Below, piece by piece: positions 9,449 to 20,197 of a DNA stretch of 64,000 nucleotides; positions within the stretch are counted from its first letter, which is position 1; each line of letters opens with the position of its first letter. The stretch is from Chloroflexota bacterium (GTDB lineage: Bacteria > Chloroflexota > UBA11872), in the NCBI GenBank assembly GCA_026708035.1, contig JAPOVQ010000014.1, forward strand, positions 2,826-66,825, in the 5' to 3' direction. Both the position numbers and the translations under genes were made by a program. The notes under the pieces were generated by a model. It was not told the origin of the DNA. It did not search any database and worked only from the letters and a program-made list of their open reading frames with translations.

Positions 9449-9609
9449 AGCGACCTCTGCTGCCTGCTGTGGGCACTTACGTACGGCAACGGCAGAATTT
9501 ACCAGTCCCGCGCGATACTCTCTCGCCTATGCGCCGCGCGACGAGACTGCAGGACACATTCGCATTGGCCAGACGACGGTTTCCCGAATGTCGGTGACTC
9601 GCGCGTTGT

Positions 9610-10635
9610 GTGACCCGACGCGTGCGTAGATTCGACAGCGGTCGTCGAGACACAGGCAAGCGCCGATCGAATGGTCTGCTGAGCAACTCTCGGAGAGCGG
9701 GCTTGGTCGTCGCGTTGGGCTTCCTGTGCCTGGCATGCGGAGAAGCCTCAGCGCCGCCTGTGGCGGCCACGCCAGACGCCTCGCCCGCCACATCTGCGCC
9801 CGCGACCGCGCCAACGCCGACGACCATGGCCAGGCTCGCACCGACACCCACGGTCGAGCCTGAGCCAACGCCTATGCCGGAACCCACGCCGACCTCGACA
9901 CCAGTGCCTACGGCGACGCCCGCGCCGACGCCGGAGCCCACGCCGTCGCCGGAGCCGTCACCCACACCCAGCCCCACGCCGACGCCGGCAGTCACACCAG
10001 CGCCGACGCCCACACTCGAAGCCACGGCGGCCCCGGAGCCCACACCGACACCCGAGCCGTCGCCCACGCCAACGCCGGAACCCACCCCCACGCCCGCGCC
10101 GACCGCGACACCGACGCCCGAACCTACGCCAACGCCCGAACCCACCCCGACTCCGTCGCCGACGCCAACACCGGTACCCACTCCGACACCGACGCCGGAA
10201 CCTACGCCGACTCCCGTGCCCCAACCCACGCCGACGCCCACGCCGGAACCGACGCCGACTCCACAGCCCACTCCGACCCCCGTGCCGCAACCCACCCCAA
10301 CGCCTACGCCCGAGCCCACGCCCACTCCCACCGCGGCGCCAGCCGATCCGGCCTTGGGCGCGACGCTGGTCCGCGCGATTGGCTGCGAGGCGTGCCACAG
10401 CGCCGACGGTTCCGACGGCACCGGGCCCACGTGGCAGGGCGTCTACCTCAGCCGGGTCACGCTGGCCGACGGCTCAACGGTCATCGCCGACGACGCCTAT
10501 CTGCTGCGGGCGATCGTGGACCCCAACGCGGAAGTCGTCGAGGGATACGAAGCGGGCCTGATGCAGGCCGACCTCGACACGTTGCTCTCCCGAGAAGAGC
10601 TGCTGGCGATCGTGGCCTATATCAAGTCGCTGTAG
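9610..10635 (+). CDS. Lipoprotein with a long Pro/Thr/Glu stalk and a C-terminal class I cytochrome c domain
   Basis: Lipobox FLCLAC-G. About 190 aa of PTPEPTPTP repeats. Heme motif GCEACH followed by ...GPTWQGVY...[23 protein letters not shown], which resembles the c domain of caa3 subunit II. GTG start is uncertain. Confidence 0.75.
9760..10350. repeat. Low-complexity coding repeat (Pro/Thr/Glu stalk, cc(n)ac(n)cc(n) periodicity)
   Basis: Reiterated ccgacgcc / gagcccacgcc units. They generate the long spurious antisense ORF 9477..10430 ([11 protein letters not shown]...). Confidence 0.8.
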
Positions 10636-10646
10636 CCCCGACCCGC

Positions 10647-11711
10647 CTACGCGTCGCTGATCGGCAGCGTGATCCGGGCGTTGCCGGCGTGCTGCGAGTG
10701 CAGCGCGGCCAGCAGCACTTCGACGACCTGACGCGAGGTGCGACCGTCCATCGAAGGCCGTCCGCCGTGGTGGATCAGCTGCACCATTTCGTCGACGCAA
10801 CCGGCGATGTGGCCCAGGGTGTACTGGGGTCGGGGAAGGCTGCGCTGATTGAAGTCGCCGCCGTTCTTGACGACGACGGTAGCGTTGCCCGAGTCGTCGA
10901 CGCGCACGATCCCGGCGGTTCCCAAGACCTCCAGCGAGAATACCTGCGGCATGGTTTTGCACATATTCCAGAAGGCGCGCACGCCGTTGTCGAACTCGAC
11001 AACCACTGACATCGCGGGGTCGGTGTCGGGGTCGTGGCCGCCGTCGCTGGCATAGCGCGGGGGGTAGTCCTCGAACCCGGCTTCCGCGATCCCGTAGACC
11101 GCGGTGGGCGTGCCGCCGGCGAACCATAGGATGGTGTCGAACATGTGGGTGCCGTTGCGGAACAGCATCGCGCGCGGACCGCCCTGATTGGCAACAATTC
11201 GTTGCACCTCGCCGATTTCGCCGGACGCGATCACCTCCGCCACCTGCACCCACGGGAACATCCAGCGCCGCGTGTGATCCACCAGCATGGGGACGCCTGC
11301 GGCCTCGACGGCGGCGATCATGCGGTCGGCGTCGGCCAGCGTTGAGGCGATGGGCTTTTCGCAGACAATCCCGCGCACGCCGGCGTCGACCGCGTCGACG
11401 ACGATTTGCGCGTGCCGGTCGTCAGGGGTCGCCACGCTGATCACGTCCAACTGCTCGCGGGCCAGCATTTCGCGGTAGTCGGTGTAGCCGCGCACGTCGG
11501 GCAGCGCGTCGCTCCAGGTGCGGTGAAAGTCGTCCAGCTTCTCGGGCACGATGTCGCACACCGCCACCGGCTCCGTGCCGGCGATGTGGTGATAAGCGGC
11601 GACGTGCGAATGCGGCATATCGAAGCCGGTGCCCGGTCCCGGCCCTGGCGCGGGGCGCTTGGCCCCGATGCCGGTCAGGCCGACCACGCCGGCTCGCAGC
11701 GGATTATTCAT
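10647..11711 (-). CDS. Gfo/Idh/MocA family oxidoreductase
   Basis: N-terminal Rossmann segment (RAGVVGLTGIG), the family signature CEKP (IVCEKPIA), and 354 aa. Confidence 0.85.
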   Translation of the reverse strand: MNNPLRAGVVGLTGIGAKRPAPGPGPGTGFDMPHSHVAAYHHIAGTEPVAVCDIVPEKLDDFHRTWSDALPDVRGYTDYREMLAREQLDVISVATPDDRHAQIVVDAVDAGVRGIVCEKPIASTLADADRMIAAVEAAGVPMLVDHTRRWMFPWVQVAEVIASGEIGEVQRIVANQGGPRAMLFRNGTHMFDTILWFAGGTPTAVYGIAEAGFEDYPPRYASDGGHDPDTDPAMSVVVEFDNGVRAFWNMCKTMPQVFSLEVLGTAGIVRVDDSGNATVVVKNGGDFNQRSLPRPQYTLGHIAGCVDEMVQLIHHGGRPSMDGRTSRQVVEVLLAALHSQHAGNARITLPISDA

Positions 11712-11786: not shown

Positions 11787-12887
11787 CTACAGCGCGTCGA
11801 TGGCCGCCAGGATGTCGGCGGATGTGATCAAGTCGTAAACGCCGCTGTAAATCGACTTCCAGGCCACGTTCCCGTCGAGATCGACCAGGAATGCCGATCC
11901 CGTGGCGAGGCCGTCGCCGAAGTGATTGAACACGCCGTAGGCCCTGGGCACGTCACCCGCGATGTTGTAGAGCACCGGGAAATCGAGCCCGATTCGCTCA
12001 ATGATGCCGGCGGTGTCTTCCAGCGAGTCGGTGCTGATGGCCAGGATTTCCACGCCGCGCGATTGGAATTCCTGGTAGTTGTTCTGCAGCTCCACGAGCT
12101 GCGTGCGGCAAGCCGTTCACCAGAACGCGCGGTAGAACACCACCACCACCGGCTGCTGTCCCTGGAATGCGCTCAGGGTGTACTGCGGTCCTTGGGCGCT
12201 CGGCAGCGAAAAGTCGACGGCGGCTGCCCTGGCGGGGGCCGGTGCTGACGTCGGGGTCGGGGTTGGCTGCGGTGTGGGCGTCGGTTCCGGCGTAGGGGTC
12301 GGTTGCGGCGTCGGCGTGGACGCAGCCGTCTCGCAAACCACGCCGTCGCCGTCTCGATCCGTCATGTACTCATACGCGGGATGGTCGCTCCTGACCGGGG
12401 CAATCCCGTGCGCGCGCGCTTCGGCGCATGAGATCCGACCGTTGCCGTCGTCGTCATAGAGGTCGAGCGCCGTCGGCGCGGGGGTTGGAGTTGGTGTGGG
12501 TTCCGGAGCGGGCGTGGGCGTCGGCTGCGGCGTTGGCGTCGGCGTGGGTTGGGGTGCGGGCGTCGGAGTCGGCGCCGCCGTCGGTGGCGGCGCTGGAGTG
12601 GACGTGGGTGCGGGCGCCGGGGTCGAGGTCGGTTCGGGAACAGCCGTGGGCGTTGGCGCCGCGGCGATGACTACTACCGGAGTGGGCGCGGGAGTAGCGG
12701 TGGGCGTCGGCGGGCTGGTTGGTGTTGGCGCGGGTGGCGGCGGCGCAGGAGTGTCCGTTGGCGCCGGCGGCGGAGTTGCGGTTGCCGTGGGGGCCACCTC
12801 GGCGGCGGGCTCCACGGGCTCGGCGGCTTCGCCGCACGCAGCCAGGACGACCGCCAACGCGACAACAGCAATGATCCCGACGCGCAC
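11787..12887 (-). CDS. Predicted selenoprotein: lipoprotein with Pro/Thr stalk, Excalibur-like Ca-binding insert and a redoxin (TlpA/ResA/AhpC-TSA superfamily) domain with a U-T-A-C active site (TGA at 12117-12119 read as Sec)
   Basis: Track ORFs 12117..12887 and 11787..12095 are in the same frame. Joined, they read ...[43 protein letters not shown]...FPVLYN...AFLVDLDGN. Lipobox VLAAC-G. GGGAGA lies 6 nt before the GTG at 12887. The paralog has its TGA at the same column. Confidence 0.75.
12086..12102 (-). promoter_or_regulatory. Candidate bacterial SECIS hairpin (GCAGCUC-GUG-GAGCUGC), 14 nt downstream of the UGA at 12117-12119
   Basis: Perfect 7-bp inverted repeat on the mRNA with GU in the apical loop. 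Its position matches bacterial SECIS expectations. The core is conserved in the paralog. Confidence 0.45.
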
Positions 12888-12956
12888 CCGGATTCTCCCG
12901 ACGCTACTTCCCTCGAATTCTACGTCGGAGGCGAGGCCATGGTTTGCCGTGGCTGC

Positions 12957-13514
12957 CTAACAACTGCCCTTTCTAATGAACTCAATGAGCTGACGGATCT
13001 CCTCTTCCGTCAGGTCGGAAAACGCCGGCATGCCATTGCCGCCCTCGGCAAGCTGCGAGCGAATGCGGTCCTCCGGCAGGTCCTCTGGAGTGCGGCAGGC
13101 AAGCGCCGGGCCGATGCCGCCGCTGAGGTCTTCACCGTGGCAGACGGTGCAGCCCTTGGCGATGAAGACCTGATGTCCGGGGGAAAGATCCTCACGAGGG
13201 GGCGGCGTCGGCGTGGGTGTCGGCGTGCCGATCGGGGTCGGTGTCGGGGTTGGAGGGGGTGTGGGAGGTAGCGGGGTGGGCACCTCGTCCGCCGGACGGG
13301 CTGTGGGCGAGGGCTCGAGGGGAGGCGCGATTCGACCCGGTGGGACCATGGCCAGCGAGTGGGCGATGACGGGGGTCGGTTCCGGCGTGGGCACAAGGAG
13401 TGAAAGGCGGCTCGATTCGCCGCAGGCCACGACGCCAACAAGGATTACGCCGCTCAGCAGCGCACATATGGCGCGCCCGAGGCGCGCGGCTCGGCGAGAC
13501 CCGGTGACCTTCAC
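12957..13514 (-). CDS. Monoheme class I cytochrome c lipoprotein with a Pro/Thr stalk
   Basis: Lipobox GVVAC-G. Heme motif GCTVCH. Distal Met in GGNGMPAF. 185 aa. Confidence 0.8.
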
Positions 13515-13566
13515 TTGCCTGCGACGCTCCGCTGAGCGGAGCGGCTCGGATTGCGGCGCCGTCGCT

Positions 13567-14244
13567 CTACAGCTCGTCGATGGCCGCCAGGATGTCGCCC
13601 GACGTGATCAGGTCGTGAACGCCGCTGTAGATCGACTTCCAGGCCAGGTTTCCGTCAAGGTCGACCAGGAACGCCGACCCGGTGGCGAGACCGTCGCCGT
13701 AGAGATTGAAGATCCCGTATTCGCGGGGAACGTTGCCCTCGATGTTGTAGAGCACCGGAAACTGAATGCCGATCCGCTCCACGATGCCGGCGGTGTCTTC
13801 GAGCGAGTCCGTGCTGACGGCGAGGATTTCCACGCCGCGCGCCTGAAACTCTTCGTAGTTCTTTTGCAGCTCCACGAGCTGGGTGCGGCAAGTCCCTCAC
13901 CAGAAGGCGCGGTAGAAGACGACGACCACCGGCTGCTGCCCGGCAAACGAGCTAAGCGTGTACTGCGGGCCCTGGGCGCTCGGCAGCGAGAAGTCCACGG
14001 CGGCCGCCCGCGCCGGGGCCGGCGGCGGGGTCGGCGTGGCGGCCGGCTGTGGCGCCTGCGTGGCAGTCGGCTGCGTCGTTGGCGTGGGCGGAGGCGCGGG
14101 AGTGTCCGTGGCCGTGGGCAGTGCGGGGGCCGCGGTTGCCGCGGGCGCGGCCTCGGCGGCCGGTTCCGGCGGAGCGGTGGTGTCGCCGCACGCCGCTAGG
14201 ACCACCGCCAACGCGATGACCGCGACAATTCCGGCTCGCATCAT
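13567..14244 (-). CDS. Predicted selenoprotein paralog: lipoprotein with a short Pro/Thr/Ala stalk and a redoxin domain with a U-G-T-C active site (TGA at 13897-13899 read as Sec)
   Basis: Track ORFs 13897..14304 and 13567..13875 are in the same frame: ...[43 protein letters not shown].... Likely start is MMRAGIV at 14244, with AGGGAAAG upstream. Lipobox VLAAC-G. Confidence 0.75.
13867..13881 (-). promoter_or_regulatory. Candidate SECIS hairpin (CAGCUC-GUG-GAGCUG) downstream of the UGA at 13897-13899
   Basis: 6-bp perfect stem with the same loop and the same spacing as in the paralog. Confidence 0.4.
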
Positions 14245-14311
14245 GGCTTTCCCTGCGGGTCGCCCCTCGGATTCTACGCCGAGCGCGCGGCCGCGCATTG
14301 TCAATTTGATC

Positions 14312-14878
14312 TCAGGAACTGCGAATAAACTCGATGAGCTGAACGATTTGCTCTTCGGTCAAGTCGGGAAACGGCGGCATGCCGTTGCCGCCCTCGGCGA
14401 GCTGCTGGCGAATGCGCTCCTCGGTTAGATCGTCAACCGTCCGCTCCGCGAGAGCCGGTCCGATGCCGCCGCTCAGGTCTTCGGCGTGGCAGACGGTGCA
14501 GCCATTGGCGATGAAGAGTTGATGGCCGGGGGGCAGGTCGCTGGGCGGCGGCTCCGCCGGAGGCGGCGGGGGCGTCACACCCCCGTCCACGGCCGGTGTC
14601 GGCGTCTCGATCACGACGGGAGTTGGCGCCGCGAGGGTGATCACCGCCTCTGGCGTGCGCGGGGGCGGCGCCGGGGCCAAGTTAGGTGCGGTCCGTCCCG
14701 CTGGGACCATGGCCAGCAGTTGGGCGACGGCCGGGGTCGGTTCAGGGGTGGGCGCGAGACCTGAGAACCTGCCCGATTCGCCGCAGGCCGCGACTACGCC
14801 GGCGAGGATGGCGCCGCCCAGAAACGCGCAAATGGCGCCCCCGAGGCGCGCGATTCGTCGGGACCCGATGACTTGCAT
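14312..14878 (-). CDS. Monoheme class I cytochrome c lipoprotein with a Pro-rich stalk (paralog of 12957..13514)
   Basis: Likely start MQVIGSRRIARLGG at 14878. Lipobox VVAAC-G. Heme motif GCTVCH. Distal Met in GGNGMPPF. The track ORF extends to 14932. Confidence 0.8.
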   Translation of the reverse strand: MQVIGSRRIARLGGAICAFLGGAILAGVVAACGESGRFSGLAPTPEPTPAVAQLLAMVPAGRTAPNLAPAPPPRTPEAVITLAAPTPVVIETPTPAVDGGVTPPPPPAEPPPSDLPPGHQLFIANGCTVCHAEDLSGGIGPALAERTVDDLTEERIRQQLAEGGNGMPPFPDLTEEQIVQLIEFIRSS

Positions 14879-14964
14879 TGACCTGCGTTGCTCCGCTGAA
14901 CGGCGCCGCTCCGATCGCGGCGCCGGCGCCATGGTATTACGTCGGGCGGGTTGCTTCAGCGCGG

Positions 14965-16962
<1,998 letters not shown>

Positions 16963-18026: not shown

Positions 18027-18080
18027 CGCCGGGTCCGCCGGTGCTGTCGGCGTCAGGCCGGAGGGAGAGGATGGTGCACG

Positions 18081-18329
18081 ATGACGCCGCCGCTTCGTGT
18101 GCGTGTGCGACCCTACGCGGACCTTGCCCGCTACTTTCCGGGCACCGGCGCGGTGCGGGAGGTTGACGTGCCGGCGGGAGCCACGATCCAGGATCTCCTC
18201 GAACGCTTCGGCGTCGATGCCGAGCCGCGCCTCACGCTTGGCCTGAACGGCGAGCTGGCGCAGCGTGACGCCGCGCTGGCGCCTGGCGACCTGGTCGACA
18301 TCCTCGTCCCGATGTCGGGCGGCATGTAG
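18081..18329 (+). CDS. MoaD/ThiS-family ubiquitin-like sulfur carrier protein ending ...SGG-M
   Basis: 82 aa with the beta-grasp-type pattern (LRVRVRPYADLARYF...VDVPAGATIQDLL...LNGELA...GDLVDILVPMSGGM). Its stop lies 2 nt before the AOR ATG. Confidence 0.7.
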   Translation: MTPPLRVRVRPYADLARYFPGTGAVREVDVPAGATIQDLLERFGVDAEPRLTLGLNGELAQRDAALAPGDLVDILVPMSGGM

Positions 18330-18331
18330 TC

Positions 18332-20197
18332 ATGGCACGCTCCGCCGGCTCGACGCGCCGGCGCTTCCTCCGCGTTGATCTGACCACCGGCCGCGTGCGG
18401 GTCGAGCGACCCGGGCATGACTTCATGCGGCTGCACATGGGCGGGCGCAACGTCATCGCCCACACGCTGCTTTCGGAAGTCCCACCGGGGATCGACGCGT
18501 TCGATTCCGAAAATCGCCTCGTGTTCGCGCTCGGCCCCATCACCGGCGTTTCCGTTCCCGGGGGCAGCCGTCACAGCGTGGGCGCCAAATCGCCGCTCAC
18601 TGGCCTCTTCGGTGAGTCCGAGGCCGGCGGGTATTGGGGCGCCGAGCTCAAGCGGGCCGGCTGGGACGCCATCATCGTGCAGGGGCGGGCGGCGCATCCG
18701 GTATATCTCTGGGTCCACGGCGACGAGGTCGCGCTGCGCGACGCCCGGCCGCTGTGGGGCAAGTTGACTGGACCGGTGGAAGACCGAATCCGGACGGAAC
18801 TCGCCGACCCACAGGTGCGCGTGGCCCAGATCGGTCCTGCCGGCGAGAACCTCGTGCGATTCGCCTGCGTCGTCCACGACCTGAATGAGGTGGCCGGTCG
18901 AACCGGCCTGGGCGCCGTGATGGGATCGAAGAACCTCAAGGCCATTGCCGTGCGCGGCACGCAGCCGGTGTCCGCGGCCGATCCACGGGCGATTGCCGGG
19001 GTGGCGCGCTGGGTGGCCCAGGAGACGCTCGCGCCCGGTGGTGAGCACCATCGGCTCCACACGTGGGGCACCGGCGCCATGGTCAAATCCAAGCTGCTGG
19101 AGGGCCACCTCGTGGCTCACAACTTCCGCGACGGCCGGCTGCCGGGCGGTGACCAGGTGGACGCCCTGGCCATTCAAGATCTCACCGACCACGAGATGGA
19201 TCGCTGCTACGCGTGCTCCGTCCGCTGCAAGAAACGCGTCAGGGTCAGGCGTCCCGACCTCGAGGTCGATCCCAAATACGGCGGTCCGGAGTACGAGACG
19301 ATGGCCGCCATCGGCCCCAACACCGGCGTGGTCGACGTCATGGCCGTCTGCAAGGGCCATGAAATGCTCAACGCGCTGGGCATGGACAGCATTTCCTGCG
19401 GCGCGACGATCGCGTGGGCCATGGAGATGGTCGAGCTCGGCCTGCTGGATGAGCACCGGCTCAACGGCGAGACGCTGCGTTTCGGATCCGCCGACGACTT
19501 GCTGCGCGTGATCGGCAAGATCGCTAGCCGCGAGGGCGTGGGCGACCTGCTGGCCGAGGGCTCGCTGCGAGCGTCGCGCACTCTCGGCGCGGATGCCGAG
19601 GCGAGGGTCGTCCACGTCAAGGGGCTCGAGGTCGCCATGCACGATCCGCGCGCGATGCCCGAGATGCGCCGCAACTACCCGGTCACCCCGACCGGCGGTG
19701 ACCACACCGGCGCCGCGGGCAAGCGCTCCGGAATTCGCAACACGGTCGGTCTATGCCACTTTCTGCAATACGACGAGGCCACGACCCTGAGCCTGCTGAA
19801 CGCAGCCACGGGCTGGGACGTCTCACCGGACGAGCTGCACGCGACCTTCGAGCGCGGCGTCACCATGGCGCGGCTCTTCAACCTCCGCGAAGGACTAAAG
19901 CCGGAAGACGACCGGCTCCCGGACCGCCTGCACGAGCCGCTGCGACAGGGGCCGCTGTACGACCGTCGGCTCAGCCGGGACACCGTCAGGGACGACGTGA
20001 GGGCCTACTATCGCGACCACGGCTGGGACCCGACGACCGGGCGCCCCTATGCCGACACCGTCGAATACCTCGGACTTGGTTCGCTTGCCAAGGCGGCGCA
20101 AGCCACGGAGTTCGTCGCGGAGCGCCGCGAGCCGATTCCGGCCGGACGACGGCCCTACGCGCCACAGCCTGAGGAGGTCGGCGCCATAGGCGAATAG
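18332..20197 (+). CDS. aor: Aldehyde:ferredoxin oxidoreductase family (tungsto/molybdopterin) enzyme
   Basis: 621 aa. The N-terminal block is RFLRVDLTTGRV...GGRNV.... The [4Fe-4S] ligand motif is CYACSVRC plus a later GLCHF. EYETM and DSISCG blocks are also present. Confidence 0.9.
   Translation: MARSAGSTRRRFLRVDLTTGRVRVERPGHDFMRLHMGGRNVIAHTLLSEVPPGIDAFDSENRLVFALGPITGVSVPGGSRHSVGAKSPLTGLFGESEAGGYWGAELKRAGWDAIIVQGRAAHPVYLWVHGDEVALRDARPLWGKLTGPVEDRIRTELADPQVRVAQIGPAGENLVRFACVVHDLNEVAGRTGLGAVMGSKNLKAIAVRGTQPVSAADPRAIAGVARWVAQETLAPGGEHHRLHTWGTGAMVKSKLLEGHLVAHNFRDGRLPGGDQVDALAIQDLTDHEMDRCYACSVRCKKRVRVRRPDLEVDPKYGGPEYETMAAIGPNTGVVDVMAVCKGHEMLNALGMDSISCGATIAWAMEMVELGLLDEHRLNGETLRFGSADDLLRVIGKIASREGVGDLLAEGSLRASRTLGADAEARVVHVKGLEVAMHDPRAMPEMRRNYPVTPTGGDHTGAAGKRSGIRNTVGLCHFLQYDEATTLSLLNAATGWDVSPDELHATFERGVTMARLFNLREGLKPEDDRLPDRLHEPLRQGPLYDRRLSRDTVRDDVRAYYRDHGWDPTTGRPYADTVEYLGLGSLAKAAQATEFVAERREPIPAGRRPYAPQPEEVGAIGE

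Follow-up and report, generated by a model that had tools for sequence, protein, structure and literature searches.

The minus strand of a 64,000-nucleotide (nt) stretch of DNA from a Chloroflexota bacterium (GenBank assembly GCA_026708035.1, contig JAPOVQ010000014.1, positions 2,826 to 66,825; hereafter the window, in whose coordinates all window features are given) encodes two monohaem cytochrome c lipoproteins, each followed by a redoxin lipoprotein whose gene contains an in-frame TGA codon predicted to specify selenocysteine (Sec). The question raised by this locus is whether cytochrome and Sec-redoxin are functional partners or neighbours only. An earlier note on the same DNA had taken their fixed pairing to suggest a functional couple on the outer face of the membrane. 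To answer the question, about 170 related loci were compared, comprising a forward survey of 79 genome loci together with ENA loci and a reverse survey of 80 metagenome loci; individual loci are cited below by their survey numbers. As shown by this comparison, the cytochromes do not appear to be obligatory 1:1 redox partners of the redoxins. The full reading favoured here, with a confidence slightly better than even, is that of a duplicated segment encoding Sec-redoxins of envelope thiol-disulfide chemistry, for which any link to the cytochromes would be facultative at most.

The repeated segment and its products

The host clade is sponge-associated, the relatives of the window genes coming from Chloroflexota metagenome-assembled genomes, many having been binned from marine sponges. 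In the window (G+C content 66.8%) the minus-strand order is acs (the gene for acetyl-CoA synthetase), cyt c A, Sec-redoxin A, cyt c B, Sec-redoxin B and a gene for a Gfo/Idh/MocA oxidoreductase (GFO). The cyt c A product (14312..14878; 188 amino acids, aa) is a class I c-type cytochrome with the lipobox VAAC, a Pro-rich stalk of ~80 aa and the haem-binding motif CTVCH (14486..14500). Its start at 14878 was backed by alignment to the cyt c B start and by a GGAG common to the regions upstream of both. The paralogous cyt c B (12957..13514; 185 aa) has the lipobox VVAC and the same haem-binding motif at 13137..13151. Both redoxins, A (13567..14244) and B (11787..12887), have the lipobox LAAC and a domain of the AhpC/TSA fold, preceded by a stalk of ~60 aa in A and ~200 aa in B. 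The stalks of all four products follow the signal peptide and lipobox, are 28–36% Pro and are rich in Thr and Ala. Signal peptides and lipoboxes were identified by sequence pattern, and the four products are predicted to be exported lipoproteins, stalk-tethered at the outer face of the cytoplasmic membrane.

A global DNA alignment showed modules A and B to be collinear from the 5′ leader and the signal peptides through the cytochrome domains and the spacer to the redoxin domains. The conserved blocks contained 42–53 identical bases per 60 columns, far beyond chance, and the leader of module A (14879..14932, minus strand) aligned with its copy in module B (13515..13566, minus strand) in 47 of 60 columns. 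Synonymous divergence (dS) between the modules was similar in the redoxin domains (0.59) and the cytochrome domains (0.67), which fits a single duplication of the whole segment. The corresponding ratios of nonsynonymous to synonymous divergence (dN/dS), 0.15 and 0.19, indicate purifying selection on both pairs. Almost certainly, a segment of two genes was duplicated here in tandem, and long ago. What the earlier note had described here was borne out: the four minus-strand genes with acs directly upstream were all found among the open reading frames (ORFs) and their translations, the lipobox Cys and Pro/Thr-rich spacers were present in each product, and the duplication of the entire module agrees with the collinear alignment, the dS values and the cytochrome remnants in related genomes described below. 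The resemblance that it had seen between the two cytochrome-redoxin spacers also held, as the elements at 14265..14283 (ctcggcGTAGAATccgagg) and 12911..12929 (tccgacGTAGAATtcgagg), both on the minus strand and each preceding a redoxin gene (A and B, respectively), share cGTAGAAT(c/t)CGAGG.

Each redoxin paralogue in the group of closest loci (the window clade, defined below) has, 30–40 nt before its start, an element of the form cGTAGAAT(c/t)(t/c)gaGGG. This element resembles a −10 box with a short leader and is, as a candidate, consistent with separate transcription of the redoxins; if it is a promoter, the redoxins would not be obligatorily co-transcribed with the cytochromes. No promoter was called in the spacers by a strict sigma-70 scan, so that the GTAGAAT element remains a candidate −10 box. 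The terminator scan returned one terminator-like site, inside the signal-peptide coding region of cyt c B, which is fewer than expected by chance. In addition, a conserved TGACAA/GGCAAA box lies ~22 nt further upstream of the GTAGAAT...GGG element (window 14271–14277 and 12917–12923, minus strand; L011–L019). Element and box together may be a promoter of unusual spacing or the site of a regulator.

Both cytochromes matched PF13442/PF00034 above the gathering score, with 45.7 bits (cyt c A) and 47.3 bits (cyt c B) for PF13442 against a cut-off of 27, and 32.6 bits for PF00034 on cyt c A. Besides this Pfam domain, each has the single CTVCH and the Met ligand in NGMP(P/A)F (NGMPPF in cyt c A) that mark a class I c-type cytochrome, and cyt c A aligned with cytochrome c6 (3dmi), CxxCH and Met ligand included. 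One CxxCH, the G-N-x-M-P-x-F motif and a domain of ~75 aa are shared with Bacillus c550 (CccA), the lipoprotein c551 (CccB) and cyanobacterial and algal c6, and the tether at the outer face of the membrane is shared with CccA and CccB. The c550 and c551 models were also the nearest in NCBIfam, although their cut-offs were not reached (NF045773, 35.3 bits versus 125; NF045774, 30.2 versus 118), and 3dmi was the nearest structure. The window cytochromes differ from all of these in their long, partly conserved Pro-rich stalk and, in the B copies, in two extra Cys residues.

The stalk (window 14560–14780 and 13200–13420, minus strand) is not purely of low complexity. It includes the conserved segment LAMVPxGRTAP, and the longer pattern PTPEPTPxVAQLLAMVPxGRTAPxL...RTPEAV..APTPxVIETP is kept between the cytochrome paralogues and across species. 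The extra cysteines of the B-type cytochromes lie in ALAC-RT and in a C-terminal KGSC or GYC (window 12957–13136, minus strand; L013:8470–9039; L014:8485–9039), or in PPC-RQ and IAC-IR in L019 (around 8596). The pair is absent from all A-type copies, and could form a disulfide or be the target of a thiol-disulfide enzyme.

Gene order within and beyond the window clade

The window clade consists of 14 loci (the window, L011–L019, L090, L091, L094 and L095) with redoxin identities of 72–95%. Every one of them has acs (14965..16962 in the window, minus strand), cyt c A, two or three Sec-redoxin paralogues, GFO (10647..11711, minus strand; probably cytoplasmic) and a third cytochrome. The latter (9610..10635, plus strand) is a non-orthologous cytochrome c lipoprotein with the motif CEACH and a PT-repeat stalk of ~200 aa, encoded convergently on the GFO gene. 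In a neighbour-joining tree the redoxins sorted into three orthologous groups, R1 (UGTC, including redoxin A), R2 (UTTC) and R3 (UTAC, including redoxin B), and every paralogue in the clade keeps the TGA and the hairpin that follows it. Three redoxin copies were found in L016, L094 and L095, where they sit behind one cytochrome.

Adjacency of cyt c A and R1 was kept in 14/14 loci of the clade; an intact cyt c B was found in five only (the window, L013, L014, L019 and L090). In L011, L012 and L016 the last 17–25 cytochrome residues are still encoded ahead of the second redoxin (for example DLAETRIGRLIAFIGRP), and in L018 the 5′ half of cytochrome B has been deleted, the haem site included. These remnants indicate that the ancestral repeat unit was cytochrome c plus redoxin. 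The extra cytochrome has since been lost or has decayed repeatedly, in most lineages, and all redoxin paralogues have been kept under purifying selection. A word-indexed search with the cytochrome domain as query returned four proteins, all from the same syntenic locus.

Outside the clade, the sister group (L020–L035 together with L003–L010; redoxin identity of ~50–55%) has a single Sec-redoxin lipoprotein with the orthologous GFO gene 71 nt downstream, and no cytochrome upstream of the redoxin. Among 54 more distant Sec loci, no homologue of any of the three window cytochrome types was found. ORFs with a CxxCH did occur within 5 kb in 17 of these loci, none of them a small same-strand neighbour of the redoxin. 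Whether Cys-containing orthologues are paired with a cytochrome had been put forward as part of the same check, and the five Cys-form loci (L046, L064, L069, P0061/L092 and P0064/L093) had no cytochrome neighbour.

The reverse survey, in which metagenomes were scanned with an alignment of A- and B-type cytochromes, gave 80 loci at 32–65% identity. No same-strand neighbouring redoxin was detected in any of them when a redoxin profile was run against the six-frame translations with TGA read through. In L096, L098 and L099, the nearest loci with enough flanking sequence (60–65% identity), orthologous acs lies directly upstream of the cytochrome and there is no redoxin; in L099 the gene after the cytochrome encodes an epimerase. 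A distant AMP-binding/acyl-CoA-synthetase-like ORF, sometimes overlapping, was also seen directly upstream of the cytochrome relative in ten further loci (L123, L126, L127, L134, L137, L140, L150, L158, L165 and L172), an arrangement that echoes the acs-cytochrome adjacency of the window.

Taken with the sister clade, the reverse survey identifies acs-cytochrome c and redoxin-GFO as two older syntenic blocks. The cytochrome-redoxin boundary was shown by this comparison to be a block junction specific to the window clade, and the pair formed at the junction was duplicated later, once or twice. The pairing claimed as fixed was therefore not upheld, cyt c B being intact in 5/14 clade loci and a cytochrome partner being absent from the sister clade, the 54 distant loci and the five Cys forms. 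A lack of conserved linkage in other genomes had been named in advance as a result that would refute a couple; the gene-neighbourhood survey, run in both directions, revealed no such linkage beyond the window clade and largely refuted the claim. What the gene orders show looks like a young, lineage-specific accident rather than a conserved two-protein machine. No neighbour of the redoxin is conserved more widely than GFO. The latter was nevertheless rejected as a mechanistic partner, having an N-terminal Rossmann GxGxxG and no export signal, and the redoxin-GFO linkage is best read as inherited synteny.

On a stricter interpretation the whole arrangement would be synteny alone: two unrelated blocks abutted, a segmental duplication copied the junction, and redoxin and cytochrome have no functional relation at all. 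The outgroup loci with acs-cytochrome and no redoxin, the sister-clade loci with redoxin-GFO and no upstream cytochrome, the repeated decay of cyt c B and the separate conserved element upstream of each redoxin all speak for this. It does not account readily for the retention of the cyt c A-R1 adjacency throughout the clade, for purifying selection on cyt c B where this gene is present (dN/dS 0.19), for the occurrence of three types of cytochrome c lipoprotein near redoxins across two clades, or for the gain by cyt c B copies of an extra Cys pair, a possible target of a thiol-disulfide enzyme. A complete lack of functional relation was considered possible but rather unlikely. Under the favoured reading, in which a facultative link is allowed for, the locus likewise illustrates that two genes in seemingly fixed association, even when copied together, can owe their pairing to the recent joining of two older blocks, and cautions that a partnership should not be inferred from the gene order of one genome alone.

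In-frame TGA codons and the redoxin family

In a collection of 5.8 billion proteins, all close homologues of the redoxins were split at the TGA into an N-terminal fragment of ~110 aa and a C-terminal fragment of 102 aa. Reading through the TGA gave an uninterrupted conserved protein for both window genes (13897..13899 in redoxin A, within FYRAFW-U-GTC-R, and 12117..12119 in redoxin B, within FYRAFW-U-TAC-R; both minus strand) and for all redoxin genes of 37 close loci. More distant relatives were obtained by scanning one genome per GTDB species. The block W-U-xxC-R-(T/V)-QLVEL contained TGA in 47 of 50 of these, from Acidobacteriota, Gemmatimonadota, Dehalococcoidia, Binatia and other groups, and Cys at the same column in the other three. 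Altogether, reading frame, amino-acid conservation and third-position G+C content (GC3) continue past the TGA in ~70 genes from several phyla. Cys was found at the Sec column in DsbE 3gl3 (as the first Cys of its CxxC), P0061, P0064, L046, L064 and L069, the additional Cys forms having come out of an exhaustive protein search with the 109-aa C-terminal redoxin fragment as query.

The TGA is followed by a hairpin, (G)CAGCUC-GUG-GAGCUG(C), with a stem of 6–7 bp and a GUG loop, which begins 14–15 nt past the UGA and is encoded in the peptide QLVELQ. It reads (C)CAGCUC-GUG-GAGCUG(C) in redoxin A (13866..13882, minus strand; 15 nt past the UGA) and GCAGCUC-GUG-GAGCUGC in redoxin B (12086..12102, minus strand). 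A bacterial selenocysteine insertion sequence (SECIS) is expected to take this form, a stem-loop close behind the UGA whose apical loop contains a G. Over 72 distinct sequences, 95.4% of the hairpin cells were paired. Three of seven pairs had changed on both sides, with 11 double-sided changes observed against 1.8 expected, and the covariation score was reached by 0/500 shuffles; a swap of G:C to A:U through two synonymous changes (CAG to CAA and CUG to UUG) was seen in nine distinct sequences. Hairpin B was present in both the minimum free energy and the centroid structures of its 63-nt context (−26.6 kcal/mol). The z-scores from single-sequence folding after the UGA were unremarkable (−0.27 to −1.64), so that support for the hairpin comes from comparison and not from energy. 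No SECIS or other RNA family was found at the TGA sites with Rfam, either in the whole window at gathering thresholds or in the region at E ≤ 10; the sole match, cow-rumen-1 (E = 2.6), was dismissed as chance.

If the TGAs were genuine stops, the genes would be split or decayed and would not encode selenoproteins. It is true that gene callers split every homologue at this codon, that Rfam offers no SECIS match and that Sec machinery was not seen within the window. Genuine stops are nonetheless extremely improbable in view of the continuity of frame, amino-acid conservation and GC3 through the TGA in so many genes and phyla, the Cys carried at this column by relatives, the compensatory changes in the hairpin, and the dN/dS of 0.15 over the whole redoxin domain, TGA included. 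From these comparisons, decoding of both TGAs as Sec is predicted with high confidence.

Both redoxins matched PF00578/PF08534 above the gathering score (100.3 and 99.7 bits for PF00578 against a cut-off of 26; E = 1e-28), and the UGA opens a UxxC motif, in a column occupied by Cys in homologues. They are predicted members of the family listed under the name 'Prx-like thiol:disulfide oxidoreductase (PF00578, UxxC/UxxU)', a catalogued selenoprotein family that was predicted with high confidence by comparative genomics and whose function is unknown (PMC9312934, PMC13188914). With this family they share the AhpC/TSA fold, a UxxC that opens with Sec, a SECIS just downstream and the existence of Cys homologues. 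They differ from it in being stalked lipoproteins in tandem paralogues, and in having an invariant active-site/SECIS block, FYRAFW-U-xxC-RxQLVELQ, as well as a GDGLATGS loop. The new element is a putative stalked, multi-paralogue, Chloroflexota-specific branch of this known predicted selenoprotein family.

No NCBIfam model reached its cut-off for the redoxin; the best was SelL_rel_redox (52 bits versus 120), and the leading matches were SelL-related redox protein, ResA, BCP and PrxU. Against solved structures, the single sequence matched DsbE 3gl3 (E = 2e-9), AhpE and ResA, and the family profile placed the BCP-like 2ywn and AhpE 4xih/1xxu first in the PDB (E = 1e-14) with ResA after them, the ResA matches having E values of 2e-7 to 2e-11. 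Overall fold and domain length are like those of peroxiredoxins (BCP/PrxQ, AhpE and the Sec-containing PrxU). In alignment with the peroxiredoxin motif PxxxTxxC, however, the redoxin reads R-AFW-U-GT-C, with Sec at the Thr, the downstream Cys at the peroxidatic Cys and Arg in place of Pro, and the catalytic Arg of peroxiredoxins is a Gly in the invariant LATGS loop. As the redoxin has none of the catalytic residues Pro, Thr and Arg, assignment as a catalytic peroxiredoxin was rejected. True Sec-peroxiredoxins have Sec at the peroxidatic position instead (TxxU).

ResA of Bacillus subtilis, CcmG-DsbE and TlpA have in common with the redoxins an extracytoplasmic, membrane-tethered thioredoxin fold (in the window, a signal peptide and L-A-A-C lipobox by pattern) and the N-terminal nucleophile of an xxC motif. 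Where these proteins have Cys and a cis-Pro loop opposite the CxxC, the window redoxins have Sec and lack the cis-Pro. Their scores were below the family cut-offs (PRK03147, 52.1 bits versus 170; TlpA NF047696, 25.5 versus 230), their fold profile is nearer to peroxiredoxins of the BCP/AhpE type than to ResA, and no linkage to ccdA/dsbD or resB/resC (ccsBA) was found in ~40 related loci. One proposal had been a dedicated ResA/CcmG-like reductase for the partner apocytochrome. The fold part of it survives, since this Sec thioredoxin fold is as much like ResA/DsbE/TlpA as like peroxiredoxins, and the dedicated pairing does not.

A related possibility is that the redoxins act like TlpA or Sco by maintaining, in a copper chaperone or in subunit II of the oxidase (CuA), the Cys ligands in reduced form, the cytochromes being unrelated respiratory carriers. 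It would fit the extracytoplasmic tethering, the weak NCBIfam similarity to TlpA (25.5 bits) and the automatic naming of one N-terminal fragment as SCO1/SenC by JGI. Neither the window nor any related locus contained sco, pcuAC or cox genes, however, the TlpA score falls far under its cut-off (230 bits), and the motif is UxxC, not the CxxxC plus His of Sco, all of which leave such a role very improbable. Cytochrome c maturation, oxidase and copper chaperone genes were likewise not found elsewhere in the window. Membership of the Sco (SCO1/SenC) family itself was rejected, as the redoxins have UxxC instead of CxxxC plus a distal His and no Sco match in Pfam or NCBIfam.

A closer indication of function came from distant Sec relatives of ~300 aa (35–43% identity), which are fusions of a Sec-redoxin with DsbD_N. 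The fusions place the superfamily in envelope reductive thiol chemistry, as in the DsbD/ScsB pathways in which DsbD alpha feeds CcmG, DsbC, TlpA and envelope peroxiredoxins. The window redoxins differ in having neither a DsbD_N domain nor a nearby DsbD/CcdA gene, the connection being one of homology only. The fusion family (L040–L089; for example, L053:8001–9005 and L056:8001–8897) occurs in Acidobacteriota, Gemmatimonadota, Dehalococcoidia, Binatia and others with the same peptide-encoded SECIS hairpin, and L046 is a Cys form within it.

On the strength of motif, fold and fusion evidence, the redoxins are probably envelope thiol-disulfide (selenosulfide) oxidoreductases and not peroxidases. 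The UGA is predicted with high confidence to be decoded as Sec with the aid of the hairpin encoded in the peptide QLVELQ. In the mechanism envisaged, the selenolate would attack a substrate disulfide or oxidised Cys pair, the Cys three residues downstream of Sec would resolve the mixed selenosulfide, and the Se-S bond would be re-reduced by a membrane electron transporter of the CcdA/DsbD type. Differences among the paralogues in the xx dipeptide (GT, TT or TA), in stalk length and in domains suggest different clients or reach. The stalk of redoxin B is not a spacer alone, as it includes an Excalibur calcium-binding domain (12330..12467, minus strand; PF05901, DxDxDGxxCE type; 39.3 bits, above cut-off), a domain that the R3 copies of L011 and L012 share.

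Two further variants were seen among the relatives. In Dehalococcoidia (L036:7476–8435, L037 and L038), a same-frame ORF directly upstream of the Sec-redoxin fragment holds an AhpC/TSA domain, an arrangement that points either to a redoxin with two domains in tandem or to a pair of neighbouring paralogues. The low-GC locus L093 (5001–7330) encodes Cys-form tandem lipoprotein paralogues of 205 and 338 aa with Asp/Thr/Ser-rich stalks, and an acidic repeat protein between them.

Cytochromes as possible clients or partners

With the pairing not fixed, the inference of a dedicated couple is left unsupported. A direct functional link of any kind between a redoxin and its adjacent cytochrome is regarded as unlikely. 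At most, the cytochromes would be facultative clients of the redoxins, through ResA-like reduction of the apocytochrome CxxCH before haem attachment or, alternatively, by redoxin action on the additional Cys pair in B copies. Judged from typical potentials, set against those of dithiol and selenosulfide couples, a class I cytochrome with His/Met ligation should be far too oxidising to serve as the reductant of a selenosulfide, and with so high a cytochrome potential any direct electron transfer would run from redoxin to haem.

A dedicated couple could take one of two forms: a thiol-oxidation relay in the envelope that, as with Mia40/Erv1, moves electrons from the selenol/thiol pair to haem c and thence into the respiratory chain, or a cytochrome that feeds a Sec-dependent peroxide or thiol reductase. 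Conservation of the cyt c A-R1 adjacency in the clade, duplication of the pair as a unit, the stalk-tethering of both proteins at the same membrane face and the better tolerance of one-electron chemistry by Sec than by Cys are all in keeping with such a couple. Opposed to it are the absence of the pairing outside one clade in both survey directions, the repeated loss of the extra cytochrome with retention of the redoxins, the missing catalytic residues of peroxiredoxins, the expectation that the cytochrome is far too oxidising for selenosulfide reduction, and the lack of any flavin or metal mediator encoded in the module. In the Mia40/Erv1-to-cytochrome c relay of mitochondria, a thiol-disulfide protein and cytochrome c do cooperate at the outer face of an energy-transducing membrane, with the flavin of Erv1 as mediator. 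Sco-cytochrome c fusion proteins, with copper as mediator, are another such precedent. The window module has no comparable mediator, and the survey of related loci does not support an obligatory couple, which is considered improbable.

The proposal of a cytochrome-c-linked thiol or peroxide reductase loses ground for three of these reasons, the expected potential of the cytochrome, which makes it thermodynamically unattractive, the missing peroxiredoxin catalytic residues and the confinement of the pairing to one clade. The earlier note had known of no characterised Sec-containing TlpA-like lipoprotein paired with a cytochrome c of its own, and the literature searched offered nothing to contradict this. 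A true redox couple might instead have been recruited within the window clade, as a flavin-free thiol-oxidation relay delivering single electrons to haem c and the respiratory chain, or as a maturation and repair factor for the CxxCH and the extra Cys pair of the B-type cytochromes. Such recruitment is likewise improbable; were it true, the nearness of three cytochrome c lipoprotein types in two clades would be functional and not accidental.

The favoured reading, of duplicated thiol-disulfide Sec-redoxins with at most facultative cytochrome clients, has several observations weighing against it. The 64-kb window has three cytochrome c genes, all of them no further than 5.3 kb from the redoxins, and in the sister clade a different cytochrome c lipoprotein (of CAQCH type) was found past GFO in 10/15 informative GTDB loci; the nearness of cytochromes in both clades makes some functional association with them possible. 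Regarding the chemistry, Sec aligns with the first Cys of CGPC, and the cis-Pro loop is replaced by the invariant GDGLATGS (G-L-A-T in the redoxin for G-M-P-T in DsbE), so that the catalytic geometry may differ from that of ResA/TlpA. Neither ccdA, dsbD, resB or resC nor selA, selB, selD or tRNA-Sec was found within the 64-kb window. Finally, the genome scan for distant relatives required CR[TV]QLVEL, a condition that favours Sec forms with this SECIS and so biases the sample.

If this conservative reading is true, a membrane-tethered, multi-paralogue branch would be added to a selenoprotein family whose function is unknown, and sponge-associated Chloroflexota would be spending selenium on envelope thiol chemistry. 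The compact SECIS encoded by RTQLVELQ and common to several phyla, the natural Cys forms and the DsbD_N fusions provide experimental handles.

Some minor features of the surrounding sequence were also recorded. Long ORFs on the strand opposite to the stalk coding regions (9477–10430, minus strand; 12496–12960 and 13213–14199, plus strand) encode GVGVG-type repeats that mirror the Pro/Thr stalks and are artefacts; in L001 the gene caller had annotated one such mirror ORF instead of the true N-terminus. On the plus strand at 18027–20197, a gene for a ThiS-like small protein is followed by one for an aldehyde:ferredoxin oxidoreductase of the tungstopterin type (AFOR_N/AFOR_C). These genes adjoin an SMP-30/gluconolactonase gene and acs, and are syntenic in all close relatives.

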